The notes below the pieces were generated by a model, which had not been told where the DNA came from, made no database searches, and worked only from the letters and a program-made list of their open reading frames with translations. DNA of 64,000 bases, from positions 207,402 through 271,401 of the forward strand of contig DAOVJY010000001.1 in the NCBI GenBank assembly GCA_030632085.1. The letters run 5' to 3'. Positions 1 to 23,104 of the stretch are shown in pieces. Numbering within the stretch: the first letter of the stretch is position 1; each line of letters begins with the position of its first letter. Made by a program: the position numbers and the translations under genes. The DNA is from Candidatus Omnitrophota bacterium (GTDB taxonomy: Bacteria > Omnitrophota > Gorgyraeia > JAGLLT01).

Positions 1-519
1 AACGTGTATGTCTTGATCGACACCTACGGCCAGCATGCCTGAATCATCTTCGCCGCTTCCATCAAGAGTTATAACATTGGCTTCATCAAACCCACTGACT
101 CTAAAAGCACTAGCTGCATGTGACATATGATGAGATATAAAAGTAAATTTCTTGTGTATAATATCCGGATCAAGCTCTTTAAAAGCAACTTTCAATTTAT
201 ACATAATTATTTTATACTCTAAAACAGACCCAATCTGCTGGATAATTCTATTGAAATTAAATTCTTTAGTTTCATCAACAATATTTTTTAAGCCATAAAC
301 CAGAGGCGAACTGAAGCCTACCGCAATATGATTAATCTTACTCATATCTATACCTGCTTCTCTAAGGCAATATTTGGTTGCCCGTATAGGAGGAATTCGG
401 GGGGCATGTTTAATACGAGTAAATCTTTCTTCTTCCGCTGCCGCTATTAATTCTCCGTCTTTAATTATACAGGCCGCACTATTCCAGGAAATTGGAGCTG
501 TAATACCTAAAATGTACAT
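1..519 (-). CDS. O-carbamoyltransferase, NodU/CmcH/HypF-like family, N-terminal part. The gene continues beyond the window start.
   Basis: Translating the minus strand from the ATG at complement(517..519) gives MYILGITAPISWNSAACIIKDGELIAAAEEERFTRIKHAPRIPP..., which matches the typical carbamoyltransferase N-terminus (MKILGI...HDSAA...EEERFTR). A GGAGAT Shine-Dalgarno-like sequence precedes the start. There is no stop codon inside the window. Confidence 0.6.
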   Translation of the reverse strand, partial: MYILGITAPISWNSAACIIKDGELIAAAEEERFTRIKHAPRIPPIRATKYCLREAGIDMSKINHIAVGFSSPLVYGLKNIVDETKEFNFNRIIQQIGSVLEYKIIMYKLKVAFKELDPDIIHKKFTFISHHMSHAASAFRVSGFDEANVITLDGSGEDDSGMLAVGVDQDIHV

Positions 520-534
520 TAGTATCTCCTTTAA

Positions 535-1395
535 TTATTTTTTTGTAGCAATATATTTTAATGGGTAATAGAAACCAAAATTCCCCATACATGAAGCTAA
601 CTTTGTTAAATGCATTTTTTTTATAAGCTTTAAGACAGCGGTTCCGGCATTTGTTCTATATTTACTGTTTAAACTTATTAGGTCTTTCTTCCATTCTTTA
701 AGGCCAACATTATCAATTTTCATATCTAGTTTCCGCATAACCCGCTCTAAATACCAGGGCTTTGCAAAATTTAATGTATCTAAAAATTCTATCTTCTTGC
801 CACGCATCCTTAAGTATAATTTAGCAATTGCCTTGGGCAAGACTGGAATTAAATACATCTCATAATGAGGCTCATAAAAACATAAATAATTAGGACCCCA
901 TATAAACAATTGGCCATCTTTCTTTAAAACTCTATGGCATTCCGTAAGTAATGCTTGAATATTATCCACATGCTCCAAGACATTAAAAAATGTTATCACA
1001 TCAAATGTGTTACTTTCGAAAGGTATGCTATCTATTGTACTTTGCTTTATAATTTCCTGATTAAAACCATTTAGTTTTAATCTTTCCCTAGAAGTCTTCC
1101 ACATCAGCCCGTCAATCTCTACCCCGCTTGCATCATAAGCACCTTTTAGAGCAGCTAAAACGAAACAACCAAAGCCGGAACCTACATCCAGTATTTTTTT
1201 TCCTTTTAAGTCAATATAATCCTGAACAAGCTCCAGATGCATATTTGCATCATCTTCGTTCAGATGCGTCTTCAGGGCAAGCTCTAAGCCTAACTCCTGA
1301 TTAGAAACACCATTATAGGTGCTATTATAGTACTCGATCACAGCTTTTTCTATCTCAGAATAGGAATCTTGCTTTTGCATTGCGTCAGTTTCCAT
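535..1395 (-). CDS. Class I SAM-dependent methyltransferase
   Basis: SAM-binding motif ILDVGSGFGCF (motif I) with a downstream acidic residue. An AAGGA Shine-Dalgarno-like sequence lies 7-8 nt upstream of the ATG at 1395. Confidence 0.7.
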   Translation of the reverse strand: METDAMQKQDSYSEIEKAVIEYYNSTYNGVSNQELGLELALKTHLNEDDANMHLELVQDYIDLKGKKILDVGSGFGCFVLAALKGAYDASGVEIDGLMWKTSRERLKLNGFNQEIIKQSTIDSIPFESNTFDVITFFNVLEHVDNIQALLTECHRVLKKDGQLFIWGPNYLCFYEPHYEMYLIPVLPKAIAKLYLRMRGKKIEFLDTLNFAKPWYLERVMRKLDMKIDNVGLKEWKKDLISLNSKYRTNAGTAVLKLIKKMHLTKLASCMGNFGFYYPLKYIATKK

Positions 1396-1430
1396 GATTA
1401 TCCTTGTAGTACAATAATTAAATTAAATAT

Positions 1431-4400
1431 TTACCAAACTTTTCTTTTAACCAATAAAAATATAAAACAAATTATGCTAAATACGGCTGAAATCAATAAA
1501 GCAGCCCTAAAGTATGTTTGAGGCTGAAATTTGATATTTATCTTATAAGACCCAACTTTTTCTACATACCAGCCATTTGCAAATGAATTGGCAACAAAAT
1601 GGTTTTTTAACTTCCTGCCTTCAGCATAAGCACTCCACCCTGGATGAAAAGATTCTGAGAATATGAGGAAAAATGGCTTTTGACAGACAATTTCAACATT
1701 ATATTCTGTAGGATTAACGTTGCTAAAGGTAATCTCAGGATTTTGCTCTACTTGTTGATTGAGCCCTTTGCCCTTAATCTCTATTAAATAGTCCTCATCT
1801 TCTATCTGATCAACCGTTAATTCCACAACTCCTTTGGCAGCATTGAGTTGCTTCGAAAAAGACTTTCGTCCATTAAAATTTTGTGTTTCTAATTTTATCT
1901 TTTGTTTGTCTATTATTACATTTATTTCTTTAAAGTCAATAAGATTAGTGCTAATAGGATATAAAGTAATATTATAATGGCCGCCAGGAGGCTTATAAAA
2001 CTCGGTTTGAAAAAATAAATTCCCAATCTCGATATTTTTATTAATCGCAATTGAAACAGATTGTCCATTTCTAATATCAGCAGCTGCTACCTGATAGAAA
2101 GATATAATGTTTTCACTAGGATGCAATTTTATCTTTTTTAATAGGATGTCGCTAACTTGTTCTTGTTCTAAGTTATGCATTGAAGCGAGGTTATCATTAA
2201 CATATACATATAAAACCCTCTTTCTACCAAAAGCATAGGCCTGTAAAAATAGATTCGTTTCTGAAGAAGCATTATCAGAATTTTTGATAACAATATGCCT
2301 TGCCAAATTATGCTGAAGCAATTTCCAACCAGGCTTAGCAGCTATTGTTTTCTCTTGGAGATAATAACCAGCTTCGAAAGTATACTCTAAACTATTATTA
2401 CTGCTTCCCCCGGATGCTTCAGACATTTTTCCAGGCGCAGCTATCTTTGCATCTAATTTTCTAGTATCTGCAAGAGCATACCAGTCACAATTATCATAAT
2501 CAGCTGTCTCTTGCCCATCACATGCAGCTTGATAACCATCAGAAGAATAGAAAGTCACTAAGCTGCCAATCATATTCTCATGTGAAATCTTATCGTAAAA
2601 ATCCAAATCTTGATTGTTCTCAGAAAATATTAAAACCTGATTATCAATAATATCAGTATCACTTATAGGAACCAGAGCATGAAACCCGCCTCTTGTAATG
2701 GCAGCTTTATTTCTAGTGTATATATGTTTAAATAAAGGCTTGATACGGTAAAAATCCCACATCCCGAAACTTCTTTCAAAATTGATGTTGTTTTGACATT
2801 GCAGGGCTTCTTTGATAAATTGAGGATCATCTCCCAGAAAAAAAGCCGGGCCTTTGTAAAAATCATTTCTAACATCATTTTCCTGTAAGATATAACCAAT
2901 ATTAAATAAATTAAAAAGTTTGTAAACATTGGGTGTCGCTCTATCATATATACTCAACTTGATAATATCGCACATTGGCCGCGACATATTTACAGCACCC
3001 TGGGACATAAGAATATATTCCGGATCATAGGAAAAAACAACCGGCCTGTTAATAAAATTATTTATTATGGAGCCGTATCCATTATATCCCCAGGAAGATA
3101 TCCACGGACTATCTCCGGGCATATTATAAACCCTATAATAATCACTTTGGTTATTAAGCCAATCAGCTGATTCATAAACATACTCAGGTATTTTTATATG
3201 ATGAGGCGGTAAAAACGTTCTATCGCTTTTTTCATGGTACATCTTTCCTGAAAAAACCGGATAAGCATAAATAATATTTAAAAAGACTATAAGAAAAACT
3301 GCTAAATAGGCCAGCCAACTGCCCTTTCCTTTAAATTTATTGAGTAAATACGTGAATATACTCATTGAGGCCAAACCTATAAGAAAAGAAAAACTTATGC
3401 AAATTATAATTCCAAATTTAAAATAAGGGCTTCTGATAATCCACAACAAAGGAACATGTTTAACCACCCATAGATATGTAAGAGAAAATGGAAAATGCGT
3501 TCCCATGCTTAGTACAACACCAGTAATTGCAAGAAGCGAAAATAATAATCTATTTTTATTTTTCGAAAAAAACATTGCAAATAAAACCATAAGCGGCGCA
3601 AACCAGCTGAGAACAATCAACAAAATATTAGTTTGAAAAAGCTTGGAATAAGCCTGATAGGGATCGACACAACCATCATACCAGGTCCAATCCCCTTGCA
3701 GGCGGATCACATTAACAAAGCTTGTATGTAAAGAAAGATTTTTGAGCCAAAGAAAAGCTTCAGCTTTTTTTAAGACAAAAAAACCGCTATCTGCTGAACG
3801 CATTAAAGAAATAGCCTCCGGTAAAAGCCAGTATAAATTTATCACTAGAGCTGCTATCAGAAACGAAACAAAAAACAGCAGAGTTCTTTTAAGCTTTTTA
3901 AAATCCTTTAGATACAACTGCTTTATCAAAAAAAATACAAAACAAAATGCTATGGGCGAGATTACGGCTATCATTTCAGAAGGATTGTTGCCGGCGGCTC
4001 CAATAGATAAACATAACAAGGAAAGTAAACCGATATTTTTAAAGGTATACTTATCTTTTCTGATGGATACTATAATTACAGCTAGGATAAAAGGCAAAAT
4101 CGCATAACCGCTTATAAGCGGAGACTTGAAGGCTTGCCAAATAGTAGTCTGCCATAAGTTGTAGAGATAAAAAGATGCTGCACAAAAAGCAGCTATATGG
4201 CTATATTTCGTTCTTATGAGCTTATTGACGAGATAATACATTGCTATGCCCGAAAGCATAAACCAGAATATGAAACTAATTTTTTCTGTAGTAATAATAT
4301 CCAAACCATATTTTTGCAATAAGGCAGGTAATGCCTGAAATATAATGAGACAGGTATCTAGAATTCTTTCTGCACCTGCTCCCAGTTGCTCATTCCAGAC

Positions 4401-4550
4401 ATAAAATAGCTGAGACCATTTTTCATAGCTATAAGGCAAGCGCATATCATTTGAGATAATGAGCATACCTTTTTTAAACCACAAAAGAGGCGTCAGTCCT
4501 AATATTAATGTAAGGATAAAAAATAAAATATTTTCTTTTTTGGATTTCAT
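1431..4550 (-). CDS. Large polytopic membrane protein, putative GT-C glycosyltransferase (AftD/DUF3367-like), 1039 aa
   Basis: About 12 hydrophobic helices in the N-terminal roughly 450 aa. The first loop (LLWFKKG...SNDMRLPYSYEKWSQLFYVWNEQLGAG) resembles the AftD-family first-loop Asp motif. A large soluble C-terminal domain ends in an ANGW motif and a C-terminal transmembrane anchor. It is a paralog of the ORF at 15063..18575. Confidence 0.5.
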   Translation of the reverse strand: MKSKKENILFFILTLILGLTPLLWFKKGMLIISNDMRLPYSYEKWSQLFYVWNEQLGAGAERILDTCLIIFQALPALLQKYGLDIITTEKISFIFWFMLSGIAMYYLVNKLIRTKYSHIAAFCAASFYLYNLWQTTIWQAFKSPLISGYAILPFILAVIIVSIRKDKYTFKNIGLLSLLCLSIGAAGNNPSEMIAVISPIAFCFVFFLIKQLYLKDFKKLKRTLLFFVSFLIAALVINLYWLLPEAISLMRSADSGFFVLKKAEAFLWLKNLSLHTSFVNVIRLQGDWTWYDGCVDPYQAYSKLFQTNILLIVLSWFAPLMVLFAMFFSKNKNRLLFSLLAITGVVLSMGTHFPFSLTYLWVVKHVPLLWIIRSPYFKFGIIICISFSFLIGLASMSIFTYLLNKFKGKGSWLAYLAVFLIVFLNIIYAYPVFSGKMYHEKSDRTFLPPHHIKIPEYVYESADWLNNQSDYYRVYNMPGDSPWISSWGYNGYGSIINNFINRPVVFSYDPEYILMSQGAVNMSRPMCDIIKLSIYDRATPNVYKLFNLFNIGYILQENDVRNDFYKGPAFFLGDDPQFIKEALQCQNNINFERSFGMWDFYRIKPLFKHIYTRNKAAITRGGFHALVPISDTDIIDNQVLIFSENNQDLDFYDKISHENMIGSLVTFYSSDGYQAACDGQETADYDNCDWYALADTRKLDAKIAAPGKMSEASGGSSNNSLEYTFEAGYYLQEKTIAAKPGWKLLQHNLARHIVIKNSDNASSETNLFLQAYAFGRKRVLYVYVNDNLASMHNLEQEQVSDILLKKIKLHPSENIISFYQVAAADIRNGQSVSIAINKNIEIGNLFFQTEFYKPPGGHYNITLYPISTNLIDFKEINVIIDKQKIKLETQNFNGRKSFSKQLNAAKGVVELTVDQIEDEDYLIEIKGKGLNQQVEQNPEITFSNVNPTEYNVEIVCQKPFFLIFSESFHPGWSAYAEGRKLKNHFVANSFANGWYVEKVGSYKINIKFQPQTYFRAALLISAVFSIICFIFLLVKRKVW

Positions 4551-4593: not shown

Positions 4594-5337
4594 TTAAGAA
4601 CCTTTTGAGGCTTCAATCCAAAGCGATCCCGCAATATTATTAATAATAGGAATCTGTTCGCAAAATTCGCCAACTTTTTTTACAAAATTAATAAGTTTAG
4701 CCGGTGTCGCCGGATGTAAAAAATCAAAATTCTTGACACAAATATTCTGCCAACCATTATCTTTAAGAAAATTATTTAATTGTGATTTCGAAAAAGCTGT
4801 TTCAGTGGGTGTTTGATGCCGCTGTCTGATAAAAGCAATATTTCTTTCTAAAAAAATCTGCGGATTAAGCATATTAGGCTCAAAAAATAGAATTCTACCA
4901 TTTTTAGTTAATACTCTTTTAATCTCACTTAAAGCCGCATTCAAATCAACGTGATGTAAAATGCCATCCCCAACAACAGCTTCAAAACTCTCATTTTTAA
5001 AAGGTAGATGAGTAAGGTCAGCACATAAATAAGTAGCAGTAACATTTTGTTTTTTGGCAATTTCAATTAAATCAGAGGTAAGGTCTATACCTGTGACTTT
5101 TAGATAATCCTTAACTGAAGAAGTTAATTCCCCCGCTCCACAACCCACCTCCAAGAGATTCTTTTTTACATTAGCTCTTTTTAAAAAATCTTTTAAGATG
5201 CTTTGCTTTCTTCTTAAGCGCCGCTTACCGGCTTTTGTGCTTTGGCCCCACCAAGAATGGCCATAGGCTTCCGCCTTAGTGCGGAAGTGTTCAGACTCAG
5301 TGGATTTATTTTGTACTATTTTATTTTCTTTTGTCAT
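4594..5337 (-). CDS. Class I SAM-dependent methyltransferase
   Basis: Motif LLEVGCGAGELTS (G-x-G-x-G). No clear Shine-Dalgarno sequence. Confidence 0.7.
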   Translation of the reverse strand: MTKENKIVQNKSTESEHFRTKAEAYGHSWWGQSTKAGKRRLRRKQSILKDFLKRANVKKNLLEVGCGAGELTSSVKDYLKVTGIDLTSDLIEIAKKQNVTATYLCADLTHLPFKNESFEAVVGDGILHHVDLNAALSEIKRVLTKNGRILFFEPNMLNPQIFLERNIAFIRQRHQTPTETAFSKSQLNNFLKDNGWQNICVKNFDFLHPATPAKLINFVKKVGEFCEQIPIINNIAGSLWIEASKGS

Positions 5338-5372: not shown

Positions 5373-5969
5373 TTAACTTTTTAATTTACATCTGATGACG
5401 CACAAAGCAACACTTTTTGTTCTACTTTTGAAATTGAACGTTTCTTTGATATCAAAAACCTGAGAAACTAATTTTTTATGTTCTTTTAGGCTTCGCAAAT
5501 AAACCCCCTGATCATAGCGCAATAACATCGTCTGAAAAAAATTTGATGAACTTAAATCTGCATCAACAATAATAAACTCATCGCTAATAAAACTCTTTAT
5601 TTTTTTAAAAATTTTTATATTGTCTTCGTCTGAAAAATGATGAACAGCATTTATCATAAAAGCTTTATTGAAACTATTTTCCGGGAAATTGATCATTTGT
5701 ATATCTTGATGAATAAATTTCTTTTGTTTAGAACTATATTTTTTAATTGCGTAATCAATATGGTTTTTGTCATTATCAACACCCACATATTCTCCCTTAA
5801 ACATGGAGCTGTAATATCCTATGCCGCAACAAATATCTAAAACACTATCATCCTCTTTAACATTAATTAGAGATTCAATTTTGCCCTTAAAGGTGCCGCC
5901 ATTAATAATGCACCTTATGCTATTATACAAAAATGGAATTTCTGTGATTTTAGCAATGAGTTGTTTCAT
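5373..5969 (-). CDS. Class I SAM-dependent methyltransferase
   Basis: Motif VLDICCGIGYYS plus a downstream acidic residue. The ORF is 198 aa. Confidence 0.65.
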   Translation of the reverse strand: MKQLIAKITEIPFLYNSIRCIINGGTFKGKIESLINVKEDDSVLDICCGIGYYSSMFKGEYVGVDNDKNHIDYAIKKYSSKQKKFIHQDIQMINFPENSFNKAFMINAVHHFSDEDNIKIFKKIKSFISDEFIIVDADLSSSNFFQTMLLRYDQGVYLRSLKEHKKLVSQVFDIKETFNFKSRTKSVALCVIRCKLKS

Positions 5970-6010
5970 AATTTTCTTTTCTGAAGTATTAACAAGTTAC
6001 AATAATGATA

Positions 6011-7897
6011 TCAGGCATACTTTTGATGCCATAATTGAAAAATTAAAAGAGTCCAGATTAGTTTTCGGTTATCTTTTTTCATACAAAAGTGTTCGTCTAA
6101 TATTCTTTTCACGTATTGATCATTAAAAATACCACCTCTTTTTATCTTTGAGATATCAAGGATATCTGTAATAAATGGACGCAATTCCCCATTAATCCAT
6201 TTGCCCACTGGAATACCGAAACCTTTTTTGGGTCTGTTAATAATTTCTTTCGGTAATCTTTTGTGGGCCGCTTTTTTCAAAATATATTTCGTTTTAAATT
6301 TTCTGAGCTTTAACGATGGTTCTAATCTAGAGACAAATTCCACAAATTCCTTATCTAGAAATGGCGACCTCACCTCCAGGGAATTAGCCATGCTTGCTCT
6401 ATCAACTTTAACCAATACGTCATCCTGAAGATAAAGTTTCGCATCCAGATACAAAAGCTTTTCTAATGAATCTTTTGAATTACATTTGTCCAGATGCTGT
6501 CTAATATCTTCAAATTCATCCATATTACTTAGATTTTCTCTAAAATCATCCGTAAAAAGACATTTTTTTTCTTCCGGAGAAAAAGATCCCATCCACCTGT
6601 AGTGTCTTTCCTCGGGGGAAGTTCCTAACCCAGAAACAAATTTTTTTGCTTTAAAATCAAAACTGAAATTACTAAGTGAAACCGGTAATTTGTTAACTAT
6701 TTTTTTAAACTGCGAGATAACCGACGCAGGTAATAATTTAAAATATTCAGCAGTTTTATGAGCCCCATAAGTAGGATAACCTGCAAAAAGTTCATCGCCA
6801 CCATCACCACTTAAGGCCACTTTAACATGTTTACCTGTAAAAGAAGATAAAAGATAAGTAGGTACAATTGAAGCATCAGCTAATGGTTCATCTAAAATAT
6901 CGCATATTCCGGGAATGATATCTAAAAGTTGCTTGCTGCTAAGGTGTTCTTCGAAATAATCAACGCCTAAATATTTTGCCACTTTTTTAGCATATTTACT
7001 CTCATCAAATGACTTATCATCAAAGGCTATATTAAAAGCTTTGACGCTCGCTGATGACAATTCAGACATAAGGCTAATGATGTAAGACGAATCTAGGCCA
7101 CCGCTTAAAAAAGCACCTAAACTTACATCGCTTATAAGTCTCTTTTTTACTGATTTTTTAAGTAAATTATCAAGTTCTGCTGCTGCTTCGTCTTCATTGT
7201 ACAGCTTAAAATCAGTTCTTGAAGAATATCTTATATCCCAATAAGGTTCATTTATAATTTTATCTTTAGTGATTACTAATTTATGTCCCGGCCGAACTTT
7301 TTTTATTTTTGAAAAAATTGTTGCTGGTGCCGGTACAAATTCATAAGTAAAGTATTTACTGACCGCATTGTAATCTAGCGCTTTACTAACCTTGGGGTGC
7401 TGCAGCATTGACTTTATTTCTGAAGAAAAAACAACTCCATTGTCTACAAATGAATAGTGCAACGGCTTTTGTCCCATATTATCTCGGGCTAATATTAATT
7501 TTTTTTCTCTTTCATCCCATAGAGCAATCGCAAACATGCCATCTAATTTCTTTATAAAATCTTCTCCATGTTCTTCGTAAAGATGAACAATGACCTCGGC
7601 ATCTGACTTTGTATAGAAATTGTGGGATTTATTCTGAAGGATTTGCTTTAATTCTTGATAGTTGTATATTTCGCCATTACAGACAGCCCAGATACTCTTA
7701 TCTTCACTGTGCATTGGCTGATTACCGGTTGTTAAATCTATAATACTTAAACGCCTGAAGCCCATGCCGGCAATTTTAGTTAAGTAATATCCCTCATCAT
7801 CCGGCCCACGATGAATCTGGGCCTGATTCATTTTTTTTAACGCCTTTACGTCAACGGGCGTTGCATTAAAATTAACAATACCACATATTCCACACAT
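6011..7897 (-). CDS. asnB: Asparagine synthetase (glutamine-hydrolysing)-like amidotransferase. In a glycan cluster it is probably a WbpS-like sugar uronamide-forming enzyme.
   Basis: N-terminal MCGICGI provides the Cys2 Ntn nucleophile. The PP-loop SGGLDSS is present. Its start lies 2 nt after the upstream gene's stop, which suggests translational coupling. Confidence 0.85.
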   Translation of the reverse strand: MCGICGIVNFNATPVDVKALKKMNQAQIHRGPDDEGYYLTKIAGMGFRRLSIIDLTTGNQPMHSEDKSIWAVCNGEIYNYQELKQILQNKSHNFYTKSDAEVIVHLYEEHGEDFIKKLDGMFAIALWDEREKKLILARDNMGQKPLHYSFVDNGVVFSSEIKSMLQHPKVSKALDYNAVSKYFTYEFVPAPATIFSKIKKVRPGHKLVITKDKIINEPYWDIRYSSRTDFKLYNEDEAAAELDNLLKKSVKKRLISDVSLGAFLSGGLDSSYIISLMSELSSASVKAFNIAFDDKSFDESKYAKKVAKYLGVDYFEEHLSSKQLLDIIPGICDILDEPLADASIVPTYLLSSFTGKHVKVALSGDGGDELFAGYPTYGAHKTAEYFKLLPASVISQFKKIVNKLPVSLSNFSFDFKAKKFVSGLGTSPEERHYRWMGSFSPEEKKCLFTDDFRENLSNMDEFEDIRQHLDKCNSKDSLEKLLYLDAKLYLQDDVLVKVDRASMANSLEVRSPFLDKEFVEFVSRLEPSLKLRKFKTKYILKKAAHKRLPKEIINRPKKGFGIPVGKWINGELRPFITDILDISKIKRGGIFNDQYVKRILDEHFCMKKDNRKLIWTLLIFQLWHQKYA

Positions 7898-7899
7898 AA

Positions 7900-8853
7900 T
7901 TAATCAATATTAAGTTTAGTTAAAATAACGTAAGGAGCTTTATCTTGAGATTCATGGTAGGTTCTGATGGAAATTTCACTTAAAAGGCCCATAAGAATAA
8001 ACTGAACTCCGGTTATTATACAAATGGTCATAATGAATATCATGGGACTTACCCAAGCGCCATGTAATAACAGCGCGCGAATAAGTACAAAAACACTTAC
8101 CAAAAAACCAATAAGAAACAGGAAAATTCCAATAAAACCAAAAACATATATGGGTTTTGTGGCATATCTGATAAGAAAATTAGCGGTGATTAAATCTAAA
8201 ATTACTTTAAAGGTTCTGCTTAATCCGTATTTAGTTTGCCCATGAATTCTAGGAGAATGCTCAACTTCTACCTCTGCCATTTTGGCACCCATCCAAGCAG
8301 CATACACGGCTAAAAGCCTATGCATCTCTCCGTAAAGCTTTAAGTCTGATAAAACTTCTTTGCGGTATGCCTTTAGGGTGCAACCTAAATCGTGTATGGG
8401 AATGTTGGCAAGTTTGGATATAATTTTATTTGCTATTAAGGAAGGTAAACGTTTGGTAATAAAGGGGTCCCGCCTATTTTTTCTCCAGCCACTAACAACA
8501 TCATAACCTTCATTAATTTTTTTTATTAATTTAGGAATATCATTAGGGCTATTCTGTAAGTCAGCATCCATGGTGATGATGATATCTCCCTTAGCACAAT
8601 CAACTCCGGCAGCAATAGCAATAGTTTGACCGCAATTTCTCCTTAAATTTATCCCTTTCATATTTTTATCTTTTTTTGCCACCTCGCTAATAACATTCCA
8701 GCTTTTATCAACTGAACCATCATTGACAAAAATAACCTCATATTCCATTTTGAGGCTCGGCAATATTCCCGCTAATTTATCATAAAGAATTTTTAAATCT
8801 TCTTCTTCATTATATACAGGAATAACTACTGACAAATCAAGCTTATTGCTCAT
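7900..8853 (-). CDS. GT2 polyprenyl-phosphate glycosyltransferase of the ArnC/GtrB/DPM1-like family, with C-terminal transmembrane helices
   Basis: [14 protein letters not shown] and [35 protein letters not shown] align closely with E. coli ArnC ([49 protein letters not shown]). There are two C-terminal transmembrane helices. An AAGGAG Shine-Dalgarno sequence lies 5 nt upstream. Confidence 0.8.
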   Translation of the reverse strand: [317 protein letters not shown]

Positions 8854-12473: not shown

Positions 12474-12483
12474 AAATAAATCC

Positions 12484-12639: not shown

Positions 12640-12650
12640 TCTCTAATAAA

Positions 12651-12878: not shown

Positions 12879-12880
12879 TG

Positions 12881-15066: not shown

Positions 15067-18000
15067 TTTTTATATCTTCCCTTCCTTTGACGATCATAAC
15101 ATAGGTAAGATATTGATATAATAAGAGTAATAAATGAAACACTTAGACCTAAATAAAATAAGTTTTGTACCTTATAGTTAATTACTATTGTTGAACCTTT
15201 TTTATATTCGGACTTATCAATTTTCCATCCATTTGCATAGCCATCTATTATGAAATGTTCATCAAGTTTAGACTTCTTACCTGAATTACGATTAATAATA
15301 TATGCTTCCCATTCTGAGTTATAAGCTTCCCGAAAATATAAAAAAGATACCTTATTGCTATCGCGTAAAACATTATATTTAGTTTGATTAATCTTTTTAT
15401 ATTTGAGAGGATATGAAAATTCTTGAGTATCGTCTTTAGATGATACTTCAAGGCAACATTTACCCATATTTGCCTGAGCAAATCCAACACTATGCAGTCC
15501 CTCAGGAAAAAATATACTTTCATATATATAACAGTTAACACCATCTAAATTCTTTAGTTCAAATGATATTTCCTTTTCATCTAAACAAACCTTTTTATTC
15601 TTTGTTTGAATGTTTTCACTTACTAAACTATCATAAGGGTAAATTCTGATGTTGTAATCACCCGATTTTGGTATATATATATCACTTTTATAATATTCAT
15701 TACCTATAACCACATCTTTAATAGCACAAGTTACACTTCTCCCATATTTATAACTTTCTTTATCGGGCGAATAAAATGAAATATAATTATCACCCGGTTT
15801 TAATTTAATGCCTTTTAAAATTGTTGTTCGAACCATATCTTTTGGTAAAAAACACATTGAAAGATACGTATCGTTTATATAATAATACATATATCTATCC
15901 ATTTCATATGAATATACATCAAATTTGACATTGGTAATAACTTCTTCACTACTCCTATTATCTATGATAATTGTTTTTCCGTTAGCTGATATTAACCAGT
16001 TCCATTTCGCTTCTTCCGGATTTTTTTTAAATTTAAAAACATTAATTAACTTTGGACTGTTATATTCGCTATTCCATTGAGTATCTTCGGATCTGACTTC
16101 TGACTGCATTTTTTCTGATGATAAAAAATATGTTAAACCCTTACCTTTTTCTCTCAAGCATCTCAGCAATAAATTTCGATATAAATCATTATATGTATCA
16201 AAAACAGCTTTGGGTAATATAATTAAATTAATTTCTTTACTTCCAAGTATGCTCTTTTCCTGATTGGTTAATCTTATTTCAATAACACGCTTTCCTTTTT
16301 TTATATAAAAATTTGCAATGTTAATCCATTTCAAAGAAAAATCGTCCTGAATTAGATCCTTTCTAGCTTGCCCAATTTGTCCATCAATTTTTACATTAAG
16401 TTTGCGGCTATATATGTTGTATATATCCTGTTCAATCCATACCTGATACAAATTTTCAATGCTTGCCTCAAAATTAAATATATGTCCGTTATTAGCTTGT
16501 AAATCGTCACTTAATAGAGTAATTTTATGTTCGGGTTCTATAAAATCAAATACAAAATCAGAAAAATTAGCATTGTAAAAGAAAATTTTCTCAATTCCTC
16601 CATTGAGTTCTTCTTTAATGAAAGTATGATTTATTTTTTGACTAGATAAAATAACAGGTAAGTCATTCATAATATTAATATAACTTAAAGGAGAAAAAGC
16701 TGAAACTTTACCGACTAACATAGCTAACTTAGATGTTTCCCCAATATAAACCGGGTCATCCTGATTTTGATATAATTGCCACTTGCCATAAGTGCCTAAA
16801 AGATTAATTTTTCTTTGATAGGATAAAGCGCTCTTTAGAAAATCCGGTGAAAGCTTTGAACCAAAAAAATCATACCAGGCATCATTGTGAACTAAGATAT
16901 ATTTTACGTTTAAGACATTCAGAATATTAGCGGCTAGCGGAGTCGTTCTCTCATAAAGGGCGTTGTAATAAGTATTTTTCAGCTTATCAGTATCGGTTGC
17001 ATTACTGTTTCCATATAGTATAGATTTTAATGAGAGCAATGTAAGTAAATGTGGGGGGCCTACATAACCCCATCTATATCCATTAAGCGGTAATGATGGT
17101 AACGCAATAATACGATAATCATTTTCTTGCTTATCCATAAATTTAACAAAATCAATTATATAATTTGGAACCTTTATACCAACAGAAAATGACGTTCCAG
17201 GTTCTCTTATCCTAATAACTTGTCCGTTTAACATTGGATAGCTGTAGATAAAATTACAACATAAAATTATTATTATAAATACTGTAGGTATCATGCTATT
17301 AAGGTTATACTTTTGGTGCAATATTGTTCTTTTGCAACAATTTTTAATCTTTGTGTACAAATATATCAAAGTAACACTTATTAAATACGAATATGCCAAG
17401 GAAATAATTAACGCGAATTTATAATATGGGCTTCTAAATACCTGAAAAAAAGGCACATTTTCAGTCATCCACAAGTAAAATTTGCCCGTGGGCATATGAG
17501 CACCGCAAGCTAAAACCGTGGCAATTATACTCATTACAACAAAAAAAACTTCGTGAAATTTCTTTTTAATAATAATTGCAGAGTAAGCCAATGCAGGAAT
17601 TAATACACTCCAAATTATCAAAAATGGATTAGTGAAATATGTTTTAGCATAGGGAACATAAGGCACATTAACCCTGGCGTCATAGTACCAATCCCATGCT
17701 CCCTGAAAGCGGGAAACATTTAAAATAGAGGTGTGGGTACTTATTCCCTTAAGCCAGTTAGCCAAATTAAACGCCCCTAAGCCGTAATTCACACTGGCCA
17801 TCAATCTTGCAACAACTTCACGCAAATAAGGTAACCACCAAAAAGCGTTTATACCGATAAAGATAAGGATAATTAAAGCAAAAAAACTTATAACGTTACA
17901 TATATTTTTAAAGGCATCCTTTGAAAATATCCTATTTATAATATAAAAAATTGCGTATGAGACAATCAACAATAGTGGCATAGCAAAAATAGGAGGACTA

Positions 18001-18575
18001 GCTCCCCATTCAGACACTAATAGTGAAAACAGTCCTATGTAAATAGCAGCCTTAAAATAACTTATATCTTTCCTTAGGCCCTTAATCATAAAAGCTAATA
18101 TTATCGGCATACCAACATAAGCTGAAATATTGGCAGCCTTCCCTACTTCCCAAATATTAAAAACCAGTGGATTAAAAGCATAGAAACAGACAGCTATTAA
18201 TCTTTGCAAGCGATTCGGTTTCGCCTGAATGACAGCAACCATGTAATAAATGGCCACTTCTATCATTAAAAACCAAAATATAAAAAGAATCTTCTGCGAT
18301 ATAATTGCTGACATACCGAAAAAATTGCAAATGGCTTGAGGTAAATAATAGAATAGACTTGTAGCATAAATAGCAGATGGCATACCGGCGCCAAAACGAG
18401 AATCCCACATAAAAAAACGTGCTGTATAAAACTTAATAGGATTGTACAAAGGATAAACCGCATCTGAACCAGCCACAGCTATTCCGCCTTTGAACCAAAG
18501 CAGGGGCACGAGTCCTAATAAAAAAATTACTAATAAATCCTGTAATAATGCATTTTTACTTTTATTATTATTCAT
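15063..18575 (-). CDS. Large polytopic membrane protein, putative GT-C glycosyltransferase (AftD/DUF3367-like), 1170 aa
   Basis: The N-terminal roughly 480 aa are multi-transmembrane. The first loop GSDAVYPLYNPIKFYTARFFMWDSRFGAG aligns with the AftD N-terminal motif (PDTKLDLTANPLRFLARATNLWNSDLPFGQ). The large soluble C-terminal domain ends ...ANGW... plus a transmembrane anchor. Confidence 0.5.
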   Translation of the reverse strand: MNNNKSKNALLQDLLVIFLLGLVPLLWFKGGIAVAGSDAVYPLYNPIKFYTARFFMWDSRFGAGMPSAIYATSLFYYLPQAICNFFGMSAIISQKILFIFWFLMIEVAIYYMVAVIQAKPNRLQRLIAVCFYAFNPLVFNIWEVGKAANISAYVGMPIILAFMIKGLRKDISYFKAAIYIGLFSLLVSEWGASPPIFAMPLLLIVSYAIFYIINRIFSKDAFKNICNVISFFALIILIFIGINAFWWLPYLREVVARLMASVNYGLGAFNLANWLKGISTHTSILNVSRFQGAWDWYYDARVNVPYVPYAKTYFTNPFLIIWSVLIPALAYSAIIIKKKFHEVFFVVMSIIATVLACGAHMPTGKFYLWMTENVPFFQVFRSPYYKFALIISLAYSYLISVTLIYLYTKIKNCCKRTILHQKYNLNSMIPTVFIIIILCCNFIYSYPMLNGQVIRIREPGTSFSVGIKVPNYIIDFVKFMDKQENDYRIIALPSLPLNGYRWGYVGPPHLLTLLSLKSILYGNSNATDTDKLKNTYYNALYERTTPLAANILNVLNVKYILVHNDAWYDFFGSKLSPDFLKSALSYQRKINLLGTYGKWQLYQNQDDPVYIGETSKLAMLVGKVSAFSPLSYINIMNDLPVILSSQKINHTFIKEELNGGIEKIFFYNANFSDFVFDFIEPEHKITLLSDDLQANNGHIFNFEASIENLYQVWIEQDIYNIYSRKLNVKIDGQIGQARKDLIQDDFSLKWINIANFYIKKGKRVIEIRLTNQEKSILGSKEINLIILPKAVFDTYNDLYRNLLLRCLREKGKGLTYFLSSEKMQSEVRSEDTQWNSEYNSPKLINVFKFKKNPEEAKWNWLISANGKTIIIDNRSSEEVITNVKFDVYSYEMDRYMYYYINDTYLSMCFLPKDMVRTTILKGIKLKPGDNYISFYSPDKESYKYGRSVTCAIKDVVIGNEYYKSDIYIPKSGDYNIRIYPYDSLVSENIQTKNKKVCLDEKEISFELKNLDGVNCYIYESIFFPEGLHSVGFAQANMGKCCLEVSSKDDTQEFSYPLKYKKINQTKYNVLRDSNKVSFLYFREAYNSEWEAYIINRNSGKKSKLDEHFIIDGYANGWKIDKSEYKKGSTIVINYKVQNLFYLGLSVSFITLIISISYLCYDRQRKGRYKK

Positions 18576-18580: not shown

Positions 18581-19564
18581 TTATTTTTTTATACCTCTAA
18601 CTTCTAAGCACCCGCCTAGCCTGAAAATATCAAGTAAAAAATCGAGAGATATAGAAATAAATCTAAAAAAAACATTATTAAATAGTAAATTTACAAGGGT
18701 TTCGTTTTTAAATTTTATATTCATTATAGACACTAAGCTTGCCAAACCAGTACCAACAGAGTTATAGTATATCTTTATATCTGAATAACCGCATTCCACT
18801 AATATTTTTTTAATTGTTTGCGGAGAGAAATGATAGAGATGCCGCGGCACATCAAACCCAGACCAATCCTGTTTAAATATTTTACTATATAACGAATTAA
18901 CATTCGGTATACCTATTATAATCTGGCCTTTTAGTTTTAAAATATTTGCTATTTTTTTTAAATTCTGTTTTGGATGTTTAAAATGTTCTAGAACATGCCA
19001 CAAGCGCACAACATCATATGTCTCATCTTTAACTTCAAGTTCCTCAAATTTGCCACAACGAACATCTAAATTGTGACTTTGTGCTCTTTTGACAGCTTCG
19101 CGATCAATTTCTATGCCGCTAACGCTCCAACCAAGATCTTTAAGCTGTTTAATGAATAAACCATCACCACAACCTATGTCCAATAATTTAGCATTTTTTT
19201 TGAATGGGGGAATCCCACCAAATCTTCGTTTCAACGGAAAATATAAAACCATTTTAATTTTTCTCAAACAACTGTTACCATGACCTCCGTAAGTCAAAAA
19301 TATCTGCTTTCTGAGGAATTTTTTAATCTTGCTGAATAAGTCAAGTTTGCTCTGATCTTCTTTTAAAACTTCTCCATATGAATAATACTCACCTTTAACA
19401 TAATACCTTCCCAATTCTTCAGCTGTGGGTTGAGGATTAATATAAACCAAGTGACATTGAGAACACATAACTAAATCGAATGTTACCTCGGTTTCGCTGT
19501 TTTTAATAGCATATAGTTTATTGTATTCATTGGAATTGCAAATGTTACAGCTTATTTTATCCAT
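18581..19564 (-). CDS. SAM-dependent methyltransferase with an N-terminal Cys4 zinc-ribbon
   Basis: N-terminal CNICNS...CSQCHL (Cys4), then LLDIGCGDGLF (motif I) and WHVLEH. The architecture resembles sugar C-methyltransferases of the TcaB9 type; this is an inference. Confidence 0.65.
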   Translation of the reverse strand: MDKISCNICNSNEYNKLYAIKNSETEVTFDLVMCSQCHLVYINPQPTAEELGRYYVKGEYYSYGEVLKEDQSKLDLFSKIKKFLRKQIFLTYGGHGNSCLRKIKMVLYFPLKRRFGGIPPFKKNAKLLDIGCGDGLFIKQLKDLGWSVSGIEIDREAVKRAQSHNLDVRCGKFEELEVKDETYDVVRLWHVLEHFKHPKQNLKKIANILKLKGQIIIGIPNVNSLYSKIFKQDWSGFDVPRHLYHFSPQTIKKILVECGYSDIKIYYNSVGTGLASLVSIMNIKFKNETLVNLLFNNVFFRFISISLDFLLDIFRLGGCLEVRGIKK

Positions 19565-19578: not shown

Positions 19579-20673
19579 CTATAGTGCACTTTTTACTGTT
19601 TTAGCAAGTAAATTTATTTCTTCTTCAGTCATTTGGGGATAAAGCGGCAAGACTACGCTTTTTTCTCCTGCAATAAATGAATTAGAAACATCTCCAGGGG
19701 TATATTTATATTTATTCTTGTAAAAAGGTTGGCTATGGAGTGCGTAATTACCAACAACAGTTTCAATATCTTTACTTTTTAAATAAGACATAAATTTGGA
19801 CCTATCAACTTCCTGATTCAACAACACTACATATGCTTGAAATATATGCTGGCAATTTTCACTTATCTCGGGGAGCCGCAAAGAAGCAATACCGGAAAGT
19901 AAAGCACTTAATTCTTTTGCTGCCTTTTGTCTTTTTTTTATGATGTCATTTAGTTTTTTCATTTGTGCAATTCCTAAAACAGCGTGTAACTCACTCAATC
20001 TATAGTTATAGCCACAATGATTAAAATAGACTCTGCCATCTTTCTTTATGCTTCCGTGATCACGCAATCTTTCTATTAATTTAGCATGTTCATCGTTGTT
20101 GGTCACGACTATGCCACCCTCCGCGGTAGTAAGTATTTTTCTGGGATGAAGGCTAAAACATCCTAAATCTCCCATAACTCCACAAAACTCTCCCTTATAT
20201 TCTGCACCCATTGCACAGGCAGCATCTTCAATAATAAAAAGATTGTGTTCATGGGCAATTTTTCTAATTTCGTCCATGTCAGCAGATTGACCAAATCCAT
20301 GAACAGGCATAATTGCTTTTGTTTTACTTGTTATTTTTCTCCTTATATCTTCAGGATCAATATTGAAAGTTTTTAAATCAATATCCGCAAATACAGGTTT
20401 TGCTCCTGTGTATTCAACTGCATTTGCGGTCGCTACAAAAGTAAAATCAGGAACTATCACCTCGTCGCCACTTGATATATTTAATGATATTAATGCTAGA
20501 TGAAGAGCTGCTGTACCTGAACTTACAGCAATAGCATACTTAACCCCCATGTAATCTTTCACCATACGCTCAAACTCTTCTACATATGGTCCTTTGGTCA
20601 ACCATCCCGAATCAATAACTTTTTGTAAATCTAAAACCTCTTCATAGCACAAATCAGGAAGTGTAATTCTCAT
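19579..20673 (-). CDS. DegT/DnrJ/EryC1/StrS-family PLP-dependent sugar aminotransferase (ArnB-like)
   Basis: VEEFERMV...YAIAVSSGTAALHLAL...SLHPRKILTTAEGGIVVTN. The family's conserved Lys is present in SLHPRK. It shares an ATGA overlap with the upstream gene. Confidence 0.85.
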   Translation of the reverse strand: MRITLPDLCYEEVLDLQKVIDSGWLTKGPYVEEFERMVKDYMGVKYAIAVSSGTAALHLALISLNISSGDEVIVPDFTFVATANAVEYTGAKPVFADIDLKTFNIDPEDIRRKITSKTKAIMPVHGFGQSADMDEIRKIAHEHNLFIIEDAACAMGAEYKGEFCGVMGDLGCFSLHPRKILTTAEGGIVVTNNDEHAKLIERLRDHGSIKKDGRVYFNHCGYNYRLSELHAVLGIAQMKKLNDIIKKRQKAAKELSALLSGIASLRLPEISENCQHIFQAYVVLLNQEVDRSKFMSYLKSKDIETVVGNYALHSQPFYKNKYKYTPGDVSNSFIAGEKSVVLPLYPQMTEEEINLLAKTVKSAL

Positions 20674-21566
20674 TCGCCTATCCTTTTCTTTACAATATAT
20701 TCCTTAAAATATTCCTTGAGGGTATACTTTGTTTTAAAATTTAATTGCTTTTTCGCTTTAGAAATATCGGCTACAATATTTTGCACTTTAGAATTAGTTA
20801 TTTTTTTATACTCTGGTTTTATCCCTAAAATATTTCCAATTTCACTACAAATTTTAGTAATACTCTTACATTCATCACTAGCAATATTGAAAATTTCATT
20901 ATCTCCGGTTGTCATAACTTTTTTAATAACCTCAACTAAATCTCCTATATATATACTGGAGACAACCGGCTGATTATCATTATAAACTTTTATCTGTTCT
21001 CCTGTCATAACTCTACGAATTAAACTTGGAATAAATCTATTTTCCTCCTGACCAAACCCATAAGGAAAATATAATCGCAGAATACTATACTTGAAGTAAT
21101 CTTTATACATAGGTATTAACTTCTCTGAAAAATACTTTGAAAGAGCATAAAAATTGTCGGGATTGACTTGATCATTTTCCGTGACTGCATCACTTCTATA
21201 TCCATAAACGCCTCCCGTTGAAGCAAAGATAAACTTCTTGAGACTTTCCCTCTTGCCATACTCTAATAATTTTAATGTTGATATCACATTTATATTAAAG
21301 CTATTCAAAGCATCTTCTTCAAAACCTTTATTTCCAACAACAGATGCCAAGTGAATAATAATGTCTATATCTTTTGGTAAAGAATTGATGTTTATTTTAG
21401 ACAAATCCATACTAATAAATTTAAAATTATCATGATTGAAATCCAATTTTTTAATATCAAGACCAATTACATGGTAGTCATTTATAATATTTTTTACTAA
21501 ATTTCGACCAACAAAACCGCTTACCCCCGTAATCAAAACATTTACTTTTTTCATATTAGTTTCCAT
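20670..21566 (-). CDS. NAD-dependent epimerase/dehydratase (SDR) family protein
   Basis: Rossmann motif VLITGVSGFVGRNL and a YALSK motif (YxxxK). Confidence 0.7.
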   Translation of the reverse strand: METNMKKVNVLITGVSGFVGRNLVKNIINDYHVIGLDIKKLDFNHDNFKFISMDLSKININSLPKDIDIIIHLASVVGNKGFEEDALNSFNINVISTLKLLEYGKRESLKKFIFASTGGVYGYRSDAVTENDQVNPDNFYALSKYFSEKLIPMYKDYFKYSILRLYFPYGFGQEENRFIPSLIRRVMTGEQIKVYNDNQPVVSSIYIGDLVEVIKKVMTTGDNEIFNIASDECKSITKICSEIGNILGIKPEYKKITNSKVQNIVADISKAKKQLNFKTKYTLKEYFKEYIVKKRIGE

Positions 21567-21574
21567 GATAATAA

Positions 21575-23104
21575 TTAAATTTTTATTAAAACATAAGATT
21601 TTATTGTTTTGACAATCTTTTTGTCGGACAAATTAAGCTCTGAAAAATTAACATAGTGTTCATTGATAAGACAATAATTAATTCTATGCTCCCTAAAAAT
21701 ATCAGATAAAGGTTTTTTAACAATAGGATAAAAATCCTTTAATCCGTCCAGATGAGCCAAAGCACTCTCGGTTGAAAGAATCTTGCAATTCACAAAATAG
21801 GATACCGGAGAAATTAAATACATAGGTATCGTTGCTATGCGCACATCATCATTTAGACTATTAATATAATCCATCATCTCCCATAAATCTTTATGGATGC
21901 TTCTTTCTTTGTCTTTAAGCACGAGCTTCCTTTGGATTAATAAAGTCGGTATATATGCCAAAGTAATTGCCCAAATTATAAATAATGCTCCATACATTAA
22001 ACCATTTTGACTTTTTATTGCAACATTAAAAAGAATAGCTAATAAAATCGCTGTAGGAACAGCTGAATATTCTAAATACCTTTCCGCTTCACCAAGAAAT
22101 CTTATAGGTTTGATTAAATTTACAAGAACAGCTACCACAAAGAGGCTAATAGCCCAGACCAAAAGAAAATCATAAACCGTCGAGGAAACATTAACAAAAG
22201 TTAAGGCAGTTGTCTTTCCAATCAAAAAAAGCATTAAAAATAACAAAAAAACAAACGAATTTGAACCAAATAATGACAGAAGAGGAACTTTCTGCAGTAA
22301 ATTGTAAACTTGATTTATAAAATCAGGGCTTTTATTTTGCTTGTTTTCAATTCCTCGTATTTGATGAGCAAACCTATAATCTATATTTTCTCTGAAAAAA
22401 TTTAGCACAGCTACATGCCCCTTTAATACGGTTAAATAGTACCCCTTTGAAATCACGATGGCGATTAAAACAGCTAACAAGGGTATGCTAATGTATATAA
22501 AATTTAAAGTCCAAACTGAGAAAGCAATGCTTAGGAAAATTAAAGCTTGTAAAGCAAATTTATGAGACAATACTAAAATAACTGACATAAAAAGGGTCAA
22601 TAAAAAAAGTAATGGTTCTTGATAATGAACAGATAAAAGCATTGTAAGAAGAGTAAGTGAAAAAATAAGCTGACTGAAGGATCTTACTGAAAGCTGTGAA
22701 CTTTCAATAATAACTATTGGGGTTAAGCTATAAACTATCTGAGCAATTAAGGCAATTAATAAATTACGTGTTAGAAAATATGTTATAGCAAAAACGATTA
22801 TGCTGTGCAAAGCGTTTATAAAAGGTGAAATCCACCATTGATTTTTCTCTAAAAATTCCTTTCTAAAAAAAGAAAGTATATACAAAAAAATTGGCGGATA
22901 ATCAAAGGGCCCGGCAATTAAGTACTTATCCGGTATTGTTTTGGGAAGTTTGCCATTTTTTCTAATAATGTCAGCCATTTCCAGCAGCTTCCATGTATCA
23001 ACTCCAAAATAGCGATTATATATTCTGGGATATATCTGCAACAAAAAAGCGATACCGGCAATAATTGAGGTTACAAATAAGTTATGCAATAATGTCATAG
23101 CCAT
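21575..23104 (-). CDS. Polytopic membrane protein, putative GT-C glycosyltransferase (ArnT/PMT-like), 509 aa
   Basis: It shares its architecture and the first-loop motif FGVDTWKLLEMADIIRKNGKLP with 10947..12473. Confidence 0.5.
   Translation of the reverse strand: MAMTLLHNLFVTSIIAGIAFLLQIYPRIYNRYFGVDTWKLLEMADIIRKNGKLPKTIPDKYLIAGPFDYPPIFLYILSFFRKEFLEKNQWWISPFINALHSIIVFAITYFLTRNLLIALIAQIVYSLTPIVIIESSQLSVRSFSQLIFSLTLLTMLLSVHYQEPLLFLLTLFMSVILVLSHKFALQALIFLSIAFSVWTLNFIYISIPLLAVLIAIVISKGYYLTVLKGHVAVLNFFRENIDYRFAHQIRGIENKQNKSPDFINQVYNLLQKVPLLSLFGSNSFVFLLFLMLFLIGKTTALTFVNVSSTVYDFLLVWAISLFVVAVLVNLIKPIRFLGEAERYLEYSAVPTAILLAILFNVAIKSQNGLMYGALFIIWAITLAYIPTLLIQRKLVLKDKERSIHKDLWEMMDYINSLNDDVRIATIPMYLISPVSYFVNCKILSTESALAHLDGLKDFYPIVKKPLSDIFREHRINYCLINEHYVNFSELNLSDKKIVKTIKSYVLIKI

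Follow-up and report, generated by a model that had tools for sequence, protein, structure and literature searches.

A candidate multi-donor extracytoplasmic glycosylation locus with an un-annotated GT-C family in Candidatus Omnitrophota

Introduction

What a bacterium builds with four large membrane glycosyltransferases encoded in one gene array, together with putative polyprenyl-phosphate glycosyltransferases and many sugar-modifying enzymes, is the question raised by a 64,000-nucleotide stretch from a Candidatus Omnitrophota bacterium (assembly GCA_030632085.1, contig DAOVJY010000001.1, positions 207,402 to 271,401; hereafter the window). A preliminary description, made from the letters alone, had seen in the array an Arn-like pathway that feeds a lipid-linked aminopentose to four GT-C transferases and modifies lipid A/lipopolysaccharide (LPS) or another envelope glycan. 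We analyzed the locus by profile searches, structure comparison and comparative genomics. On balance, we lean towards a "three-component" extracytoplasmic glycosylation system with several donors, whose product would be a heavily modified surface glycan.

Results

All genes from position 1 to about 53 kb of the window lie on the minus strand, and all open reading frames (ORFs) of the preliminary description were confirmed there at their coordinates, tightly packed or overlapping. Between 535 and 38,473, genes overlap or are separated by less than 60 bp, with the sole exception of 12,474-12,880; apart from this interval, which holds gene relics, the gaps are too small for an additional gene. 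The GC content of the array is 0.30-0.35. In 5′ to 3′ order along the minus strand, the genes encode Ugd, an RmlC-like protein, RmlA, RmlB, RmlD, a GMD-like short-chain dehydrogenase/reductase (SDR), a WecC/TviB-like dehydrogenase and three SDRs, followed by a MOP/Wzx-like protein, a DPM1-like GT2, a GT4, a 333-aa GT2, a two-domain 575-aa GT2 and a 509-aa GT-C. These are followed by SDR2, a DegT aminotransferase, the methyltransferase MT5, a 1170-aa giant GT-C, a B12-binding radical S-adenosylmethionine (SAM) enzyme, the methyltransferase MT4, the relics and a 508-aa GT-C, and finally by a decarboxylase-family SDR, a GNAT acyltransferase, an ArnC/GtrB-type GT2, an AsnB-type enzyme, two methyltransferases, a 1039-aa giant, the methyltransferase MT1 and a carbamoyltransferase-like protein. 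We consider it moderately probable that this co-directional array is one surface-glycan biosynthesis locus, with much of its chemistry outside the cytoplasmic membrane. The glycan locus covers at least 1-28,965 and probably extends out to ~38.5 kb. Its nearest named relatives are Candidatus Omnitrophota metagenome-assembled genomes (MAGs), with 78% and 55% identity.

The four large membrane proteins were indeed GT-C enzymes as the preliminary description had predicted, since structure comparison supported this fold, including the AftD fold of the two giants, and none of the four matched a Wzy, ligase or transporter family. The two smaller proteins, the 508-aa paralog a (10947-12473, minus strand) and the 509-aa paralog b (21575-23104, minus strand), are 40% identical over 497 residues. 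Neither gave a Pfam or NCBIfam match at E ≤ 0.01, and a Pfam scan of 30 distant family members at E ≤ 0.1 returned neither PMT nor ArnT, nor any other meaningful family. A profile of this family (the 508 family) searched against the PDB sequences likewise detected no GT-C, the only match being a spurious one to NDUFB9 (E 0.04). An exhaustive profile search at E ≤ 1e-10 retrieved at least 1,327 representatives of clusters formed at 50% identity, nearly all of about 500 aa. Judged by these searches, we regard the 508 family as a new, large, un-annotated GT-C family without a Pfam, NCBIfam or PDB sequence relative.

The predicted structure of the 508-aa protein scored highest against ALG12 (22.5), AglB (22.4, over 413 residues at 3.6 Å), STT3B (22.0) and Pmt4 (21.5), followed by AftA (20.3), PglB (19.4), ArnT (18.6) and AftD (14.5), and this model identifies the family as GT-C(A)-type enzymes. 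The first-loop motif that had been quoted for both paralogs was present in each of them, as RYFGIDTWRHLTVADYIRQN and RYFGVDTWKLLEMADIIRKN, but the label "ArnT-like" attached to it is too specific, because no profile links the proteins to ArnT or PMT and STT3/AglB are the closest structures. The conserved residues of the family (D32, D41, D64-Y65-P66, E130, R137, H177, Q182, R240/H243 and GEGERY at 334-339) all fall into loops predicted to face outward, according to our reading of the helix order in the model. GT-C enzymes carry their catalytic acid just after the first transmembrane (TM) helix, and the invariant aspartate of the first external loop, D32, directly follows TM1; the family thus has both features expected of GT83-type enzymes, the GT-C fold and an acidic residue conserved in the first extracytoplasmic loop. 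Neither window protein contains a WWDYG-type motif, nor does the consensus of two family alignments.

The sole sizeable intergenic gap in the array contains two gene relics (12484-12878, minus strand). The one at 12651-12878 encodes 75 aa from the N-terminus of a 508-type GT-C and shares 58% identity (E 2e-26) with residues 8-78 of the intact 508-aa protein, and the other, at 12484-12639, is a 51-aa fragment that resembles, by eye only, the C-terminus of the adjacent methyltransferase. The pair appears to be what a tandem duplication of the methyltransferase/GT-C junction left behind after an internal deletion.

The two giants, of 1039 aa (giant 1, 1431-4550) and 1170 aa (giant 2, 15063-18575), both on the minus strand, are paralogs with 30% identity across their N- and C-terminal regions. 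In giant 1, a large extracytoplasmic region lies between an N-terminal TM domain and a single C-terminal TM helix, and giant 2 likewise ends in one TM helix, after β-sandwich domains resembling carbohydrate-binding modules (CBMs). Their proposed relationship to AftD/DUF3367 was borne out: PF11847 matched them weakly (18-20 bits against a cutoff of 26; E 5.6e-4 for giant 1), and a giant-family profile that included giant 1 matched mycobacterial AftD with an E value of 9e-15 in three separate regions, so that profile and fold agree over the GT-C and soluble domains. The giants therefore have the AftD fold with CBM-like domains. Their C-terminal TM helix is single (residues 1016-1034 and 1139-1157 by hydropathy; 1135-1169 in the model), and neither hydropathy nor the model revealed the multi-helix bundle with which AftD binds an acyl carrier protein (ACP). 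The CBM-like domains point to a polysaccharide acceptor, which the giants probably extend or branch. As for the donor, a decaprenyl-phosphate-arabinose (DPA) route through PRPP, UbiA and DprE was considered and rejected, because no gene for a UbiA-type phosphoribosyltransferase or DprE1/2 was detected among the scanned window ORFs of at least 100 aa.

We then investigated the enzymes that could load sugars onto polyprenyl phosphate. The GT2 at 7900-8853 (minus strand), with TM helices at its C-terminal residues 240-290, had been described as aligning strongly with ArnC. Among the PDB sequences it indeed matched ArnC with 183 bits (E 8e-53), but GtrB sll0501 followed closely (164 bits) and the score against the ArnC equivalog model NF007986 (218 bits) fell short of the cutoff of 529. 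Its sequence places it in the broader GtrB/ArnC/DPM1 group of putative polyprenyl-phosphate GT2s. A second protein, at 26961-27704 (minus strand), is soluble and DPM1-like as predicted: it has no TM helix, and its best PDB match, over the whole catalytic domain, was the Pyrococcus DPM synthase 5mlz (74.8 bits; ArnC, 65 bits), making it a candidate for a second polyprenyl-phosphate-sugar synthase of the DPM1/ArnC type. The adjoining MOP/Wzx-like protein (27691-28965, minus strand), with about 12 hydrophobic segments and a Polysacc_synt score of 25.6 bits (gathering cutoff 28.2), is a candidate flippase.

Three further glycosyltransferases are encoded next to these genes on the minus strand. The 575-aa GT2 (23113-24840), assigned by Pfam, has two domains and C-terminal TM helices. 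Its residues 7-248 are a 36%-identical copy of the protein at 26961-27704 in which the DDGS and DxD motifs are replaced by IKEEES and DPA; this N-terminal domain is probably catalytically dead and fused to an active GT2 with TM helices. Chloroflexota encode the two parts in separate genes. Pfam, hydropathy and synteny place the 333-aa GT2, with one TM helix, and the 371-aa GT4 (together 24845-26964) at the cytoplasmic face.

The enzymes of donor-sugar supply were also examined. The 321-aa SDR at 9947-10912 (minus strand) had been likened to the ArnA decarboxylase domain, and it indeed belongs to the UDP-glucuronate (UDP-GlcA) decarboxylase family and is not a plain epimerase. Its best NCBIfam model was NF008872, a Ralstonia UDP-4-keto-pentose/UDP-xylose synthase (226 bits, cutoff 294), followed by the ArnA C-terminal domain (193 bits), and its best PDB match was human UXS1 (194 bits; ArnA, 156 bits). 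The protein carries no formyltransferase domain. The next gene encodes the GNAT N-acyltransferase reported before, with an Acetyltransf_1 domain (E 3e-8) at residues 240-330 of the 8907-10025 ORF and a weak WecD-like match (37 bits). It probably starts at the ATG at 9941 (8907-9941, minus strand), because a start at the TTG at 10025 would give an overlap of 79 nt with the SDR upstream. The aminotransferase at 19579-20673 (minus strand) was confirmed as a DegT-family sugar 4-aminotransferase (PF01041, 399 bits), and the adjacent SDR2 (20670-21566, minus strand) as an epimerase/dehydratase (Epimerase, 134 bits) with only weak equivalog-model matches. The Ugd that had been placed further along the array was found at 37175-38473 (minus strand), matching TuaD with 586 bits. 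It lies at the end of a sugar-nucleotide supply block (28962-38473, minus strand) that also contains three SDRs, the WecC/TviB-like dehydrogenase, the GMD-like SDR, RmlD, RmlB, RmlA and the RmlC-like protein.

For the comparative analysis, all ORFs of 44 non-redundant loci were searched by BLAST against the window proteins, and selected ORFs of the Desulfovibrionaceae loci and of the Chloroflexota locus L009 were scanned with Pfam. The 508 family occurred in 43 genome loci from Omnitrophota, many Chloroflexota, Nitrospinaceae, an Actinomycetes MAG, Patescibacteria/Daviesbacteria, Planctomycetia, Acidobacteriota, Gammaproteobacteria and Desulfovibrionaceae, the last including the cultured Solidesulfovibrio alcoholivorans DSM 5433 and Fundidesulfovibrio agrisoli SG106. 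An ortholog of the decarboxylase SDR (358-570 bits) directly adjoins a 508-type GT-C in 15 of the 44 loci, which span at least four phyla (Omnitrophota, Chloroflexota, Nitrospinaceae and the Actinomycetes MAG). The GNAT gene follows this SDR in the window and in L003, L004, L006, L009 and L013, and in L003, L006 and L013 the next gene encodes a DegT protein whose best NCBIfam model is ArnB (424-450 bits, below cutoff). The closest relative, L004, is fully syntenic, with a GT-C 78% identical to that of the window.

Other partners are similarly widespread among the 44 loci: the DPM1-like GT2 in 14, the 575-type GT2 in 15, the 333-type GT2 in 14, the AftD-like giants in 10 and the B12-radical SAM enzyme (at least 290 bits) in 14. 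The DPM1-like GT2 gene has a MOP-like gene immediately upstream in the window and in at least eight loci (L002, L003, L006, L013, L020, L033, L040 and L041). Locus L009 contains almost the whole set, with the radical SAM enzyme, both GT2s, AsnB, the 333-type GT2, the MOP-like protein, a 508-type GT-C, the SDR, the GNAT and two giants. Beside paralog b, L001 carries WbpB/E/D-like genes in place of the SDR2, DegT and methyltransferase genes of the window; such variation of the sugar-modifying genes between relatives is the pattern expected of donor-specific side-chain transferases.

Several observations on individual loci are added here. The 508-family genes of Desulfovibrionaceae lie in another sugar context, marked by an NTP-transferase, GT4s and a GHMP kinase that is fused to a GmhA-like SIS domain. 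In L027 (S. alcoholivorans DSM 5433; 6.7-15.3 kb), where two GT4s are encoded, a GNAT and a SPASM radical SAM enzyme accompany them, and different 508 clades may use different sugars, possibly of the heptose type in L027. In the gammaproteobacterial MAG loci L033, L036, L037 and L040, two 508 paralogs are neighbours on opposite strands, with genes for a DPM1-like GT2, a GT4, a DegT and an ortholog of the 333-aa GT2 on their flanks; paired paralogs are a recurrent feature of the family. In the related Omnitrophota locus L001, a small ParE/YoeB-type toxin gene pair (5672-6140) lies within the variable sugar-modification block.

Tailoring enzymes, all on the minus strand, complete the array. Five class I SAM methyltransferases are encoded: MT1 (535-1395; Methyltransf_11, E 3e-19), two at 4594-5337 and 5373-5969, MT4 (12881-13606), which is a conserved neighbour of the 508-type GT-C, and MT5 (18581-19564; Methyltransf_23, E 5e-26), the middle three being assigned by Pfam. 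The radical SAM enzyme (13609-15066) combines Radical_SAM and B12-binding domains and matched an HpnJ-like model with 169 bits, below its cutoff. The AsnB-type glutamine amidotransferase (6011-7897; Asn_synthase, 340 bits; TIGR03108, 630 bits with a cutoff of 817) has counterparts in 7 of the 15 loci with the decarboxylase SDR, and it would likely amidate a sugar carboxylate. At the start of the window, where the gene runs off, the N-terminal part of a carbamoyltransferase-like protein is encoded (1-519); its translation starts MYILGITAPISWNSAACIIKDGELIAAAEEERFTRIKH, and its identity comes from our reading of the sequence, not from a profile search. Related loci L002 and L003 contain genes with the Pfam domain Carbam_trans, and these carbamoyltransferase genes suggest that the glycan is carbamoylated.

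Beyond the glycan locus, two adjoining GGDEF diguanylate cyclases, one with a GAF domain (41859-44722, minus strand), are encoded transcriptionally just upstream of a ROK kinase gene and lptD. Six tRNA genes flank glmS on the minus strand, those for Thr, Phe, Asp and Val at 47138-47673 and those for Glu and Lys at 49562-49734. Within the lipid A cluster, LpxC and a FabA/FabZ-like dehydratase are fused into one 444-aa protein (58177-59511, minus strand).

Discussion

We propose that cytoplasmic enzymes of the locus would make unusual nucleotide sugars. One of these, a pentose or 4-(acyl)amino-4-deoxy-pentose, would arise from UDP-GlcA by way of Ugd, the decarboxylase-family SDR, an aminotransferase and the GNAT enzyme. 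At least two polyprenyl-phosphate glycosyltransferases, the ArnC/GtrB-type (7900-8853) and the DPM1-type (26961-27704) proteins, would load monosaccharides onto polyprenyl phosphate, and the MOP-type flippase-like protein would export the lipid-linked material. At the outer face of the cytoplasmic membrane, the four GT-Cs would transfer the sugars to a glycan acceptor, the 508-aa enzymes probably adding side-chain sugars, with paralog a most likely using the UDP-GlcA-derived (amino)pentose. The five methyltransferases, the B12-radical SAM enzyme, the AsnB-type amidotransferase and the carbamoyltransferase may modify the product further. The analysis shows the folds, the family relationships and the conserved synteny; the donor identities, their pairing with individual GT-Cs and the acceptor are what we infer.

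Several observations weigh against this proposal. An ortholog of the ArnC-like GT2 was strong only in L004 and weak in L044, so that, of the Arn set, the SDR and often the GNAT and an ArnB-like DegT are kept, but the ArnC-like gene is lineage-specific and not a conserved partner. The DegT protein of the window was another part of the preliminary assignment that did not stand: it is not of the ArnB type (PseC 316, LegC 291 and ArnB 271 bits, the last with a cutoff of 631 for NF008658; all below cutoff), and its gene lies 9 kb from the decarboxylase SDR, beside SDR2. The product of that SDR would be UDP-xylose and/or UDP-4-keto-pentose, between which sequence cannot decide. The 508 family is structurally nearest to oligosaccharyltransferases, so that its members may transfer glycans en bloc. 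As to the giants, AftD requires K39, D41, E251, K361 and D474 (bioRxiv 10.1101/2019.12.22.885152). In the HMM alignment, D41 corresponds to P42 of the giants and D474/E475 to a non-acidic stretch, and their chemistry may thus differ from that of AftD; E251 and K361 fall outside the aligned stretches, and the giants have an invariant D38 in the same loop, 3-4 residues upstream of the D41 position. Finally, the array from 1 to 38 kb contained no initiating phosphoglycosyltransferase, Wzy, WaaL or ABC exporter, so that the acceptor pathway is not visible, which is the main gap.

The reading of the preliminary description, in which one Arn-like pathway yields polyprenyl-phospho-(N-acyl)-4-amino-4-deoxy-pentose as the single donor of all four GT-Cs with lipid A/LPS as the target, now appears very unlikely. 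It would account for the presence of all Arn enzyme classes except ArnD and ArnE/F, and for an ArnB-like DegT beside the SDR in relatives. The host is moreover a diderm, as indicated by lptD (38477-40597, minus strand) and the lipid A cluster in the same window (msbA/lpxB/lpxI/lpxA/lpxC-fabZ/lpxD/bamA, 54.5-63.4 kb). However, the physical link to these genes is loose: lptD lies beyond the rml and ugd genes at the end of the array, and tRNAs and housekeeping genes separate the glycan locus and lptD from the lipid A cluster. The monoderm Chloroflexota, Patescibacteria and Actinomycetes have no LPS, and the 508/SDR module is kept in these lineages (in the last, in a MAG), so that lipid A is unlikely as the acceptor of the 508 family. 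The lack of an ArnT profile match, the lineage-specific ArnC-like gene and the polysaccharide-directed domains of the giants also argue against this reading, as do the two or three candidate donor synthases and the many other sugar pathways in the locus. Nothing indicates one donor for four GT-Cs; an Arn-like route (decarboxylase, aminotransferase, N-acyltransferase, polyprenyl-phosphate GT2, GT-C) is a plausible assumption only in the case of the 508-aa enzyme at 10947-12473, whose orthologs adjoin the same SDR in 15 of the 44 loci.

Two other explanations are improbable to a similar degree. In one, the 508-aa proteins are oligosaccharyl- or polysaccharyltransferases related to STT3/AglB/PglB that transfer a lipid-linked glycan en bloc onto protein or another acceptor, after the DPM1-like GT2, the GT4 and the other GT2s have assembled it and the MOP protein has flipped it, as in archaeal Dol-P-based N-glycosylation. 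The structural proximity of the 508 family to oligosaccharyltransferases, the weak NCBIfam similarities of the neighbouring glycosyltransferases to AglJ, AglG and Agl16 and the lack of WaaL or Wzy in the locus would fit, yet the WWDYG-type motif is missing, and ArnT, PMT, AftA and ALG12 structures score nearly as well. The two paralogs per locus, each beside a different sugar-nucleotide module, and the tight cross-phylum pairing with an SDR for monosaccharide supply also speak against it. The other explanation keeps the proposed route but makes plain xylose the donor of the 508-aa enzyme, with the SDR acting as a UXS and the GNAT and DegT proteins serving other sugars. Human UXS1 is indeed the best PDB match of the SDR, well ahead of ArnA, and the window DegT gene lies far away beside another SDR. 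Against this stand the best NCBIfam model, the Ralstonia UDP-4-keto-pentose/UDP-xylose synthase, which is ahead of other models, the GNAT gene directly after the SDR in the window and five relatives, and the ArnB-best DegT next to it in three. For paralog a taken by itself, we regard a 4-(acyl)amino-pentose as a fairly balanced to somewhat probable donor, and plain xylose as a doubtful one.

Under the proposed multi-donor system, the gene set also permits a wider and more tentative view, which we consider possible but rather unlikely in its full extent. AftD-like CBM-bearing GT-Cs, the OST/ArnT-like 508 family (~1,300 clusters at 50% identity), the DPM1-like synthase, the MOP flippase and the B12-radical SAM enzyme may form a cross-phylum, mycobacteria-style extracytoplasmic assembly line. 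It would yield a methylated, amidated, carbamoylated and aminopentose-containing surface polymer in Omnitrophota, Chloroflexota, Nitrospinaceae and others, growing by polyprenyl-monophosphate sugars and not through Wzy or an ABC exporter. If the proposed multi-donor system is right, glycan assembly from lipid-monophosphate sugars by multiple GT-Cs, so far best known from mycobacterial arabinan, would be a more general bacterial strategy. The analysis places AftD-type enzymes well outside Actinobacteria, in a gene set common to phyla with very different envelopes. The family-level pairing with a UDP-GlcA decarboxylase provides a concrete donor hypothesis, and the cultured Desulfovibrionaceae with a 508-family member offer an experimental entry point.

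Among known systems, the oligosaccharyltransferases STT3/AglB/PglB (GT66) have the closest overall fold to the 508 family, a likeness that extends to a small C-terminal α/β domain resembling the one in AglB-S2, whereas the 508 family lacks both WWDYG and sequence-profile similarity to them, is much smaller (508 aa) and has two paralogs per locus. The Arn system (PmrHFIJKLM) shares with the locus Ugd, a UDP-GlcA decarboxylase-family SDR, a DegT aminotransferase, an N-acylating enzyme, an ArnC-type GT2 and a GT-C. Unlike in Arn, the acylating enzyme is a GNAT instead of a formyltransferase domain, all proteins stay below the equivalog cutoffs for ArnA, ArnB and ArnC, the GT-C has no ArnT/PMT profile similarity and the module is kept in phyla without lipid A. 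Genes resembling arnD, arnE/F or gtrA are absent from the array, and no polysaccharide deacetylase was found among the Pfam-scanned ORFs of at least 100 aa. Compared with mycobacterial arabinan assembly (AftA-D, EmbA-C and decaprenyl-phosphate-arabinose), the locus has no DPA genes among the scanned ORFs and an Omnitrophota-like diderm host, and its giants differ from AftD in their single C-terminal TM helix, in place of a five-helix ACP-binding bundle, and in the non-conservation of D41 and D474/E475 in the HMM alignment. The AftD study reported homologs in Actinobacteria only (bioRxiv 10.1101/2019.12.22.885152), and we found no description in the literature of the locus, of the 508 family or of AftD homologs in the present phyla.

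The scheme of synthase, flippase and GT-C acting as three components is established (PMC11127046). The known systems of this kind (GtrA/GtrB/Gtr*, CsbB/GtcA/YfhO and the GT136 pentofuranose systems; PMC11127046) likewise bring a polyprenyl-phosphate-sugar synthase, a flippase and a GT-C together, and by homology only the same three components are found in the locus, the flippase assignment being a weak one that lies below the gathering cutoff. GT136 systems use a MATE flippase, which belongs to the same MOP superfamily as the flippase-like protein of the locus. In contrast to these systems, the locus has no PRPP-dependent synthase, and its 508-aa GT-C is in no described family. Its four GT-Cs represent two families and are accompanied by at least two synthases, a B12-radical SAM enzyme and numerous tailoring enzymes. 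Both the superfamilies of the components and the principle of operation are known; what is new is the 508-aa GT-C family, a multi-GT-C gene set that is conserved together with a B12-radical SAM enzyme, and the occurrence of AftD-type enzymes outside Actinobacteria, in Omnitrophota, Chloroflexota, Nitrospinaceae and further lineages.

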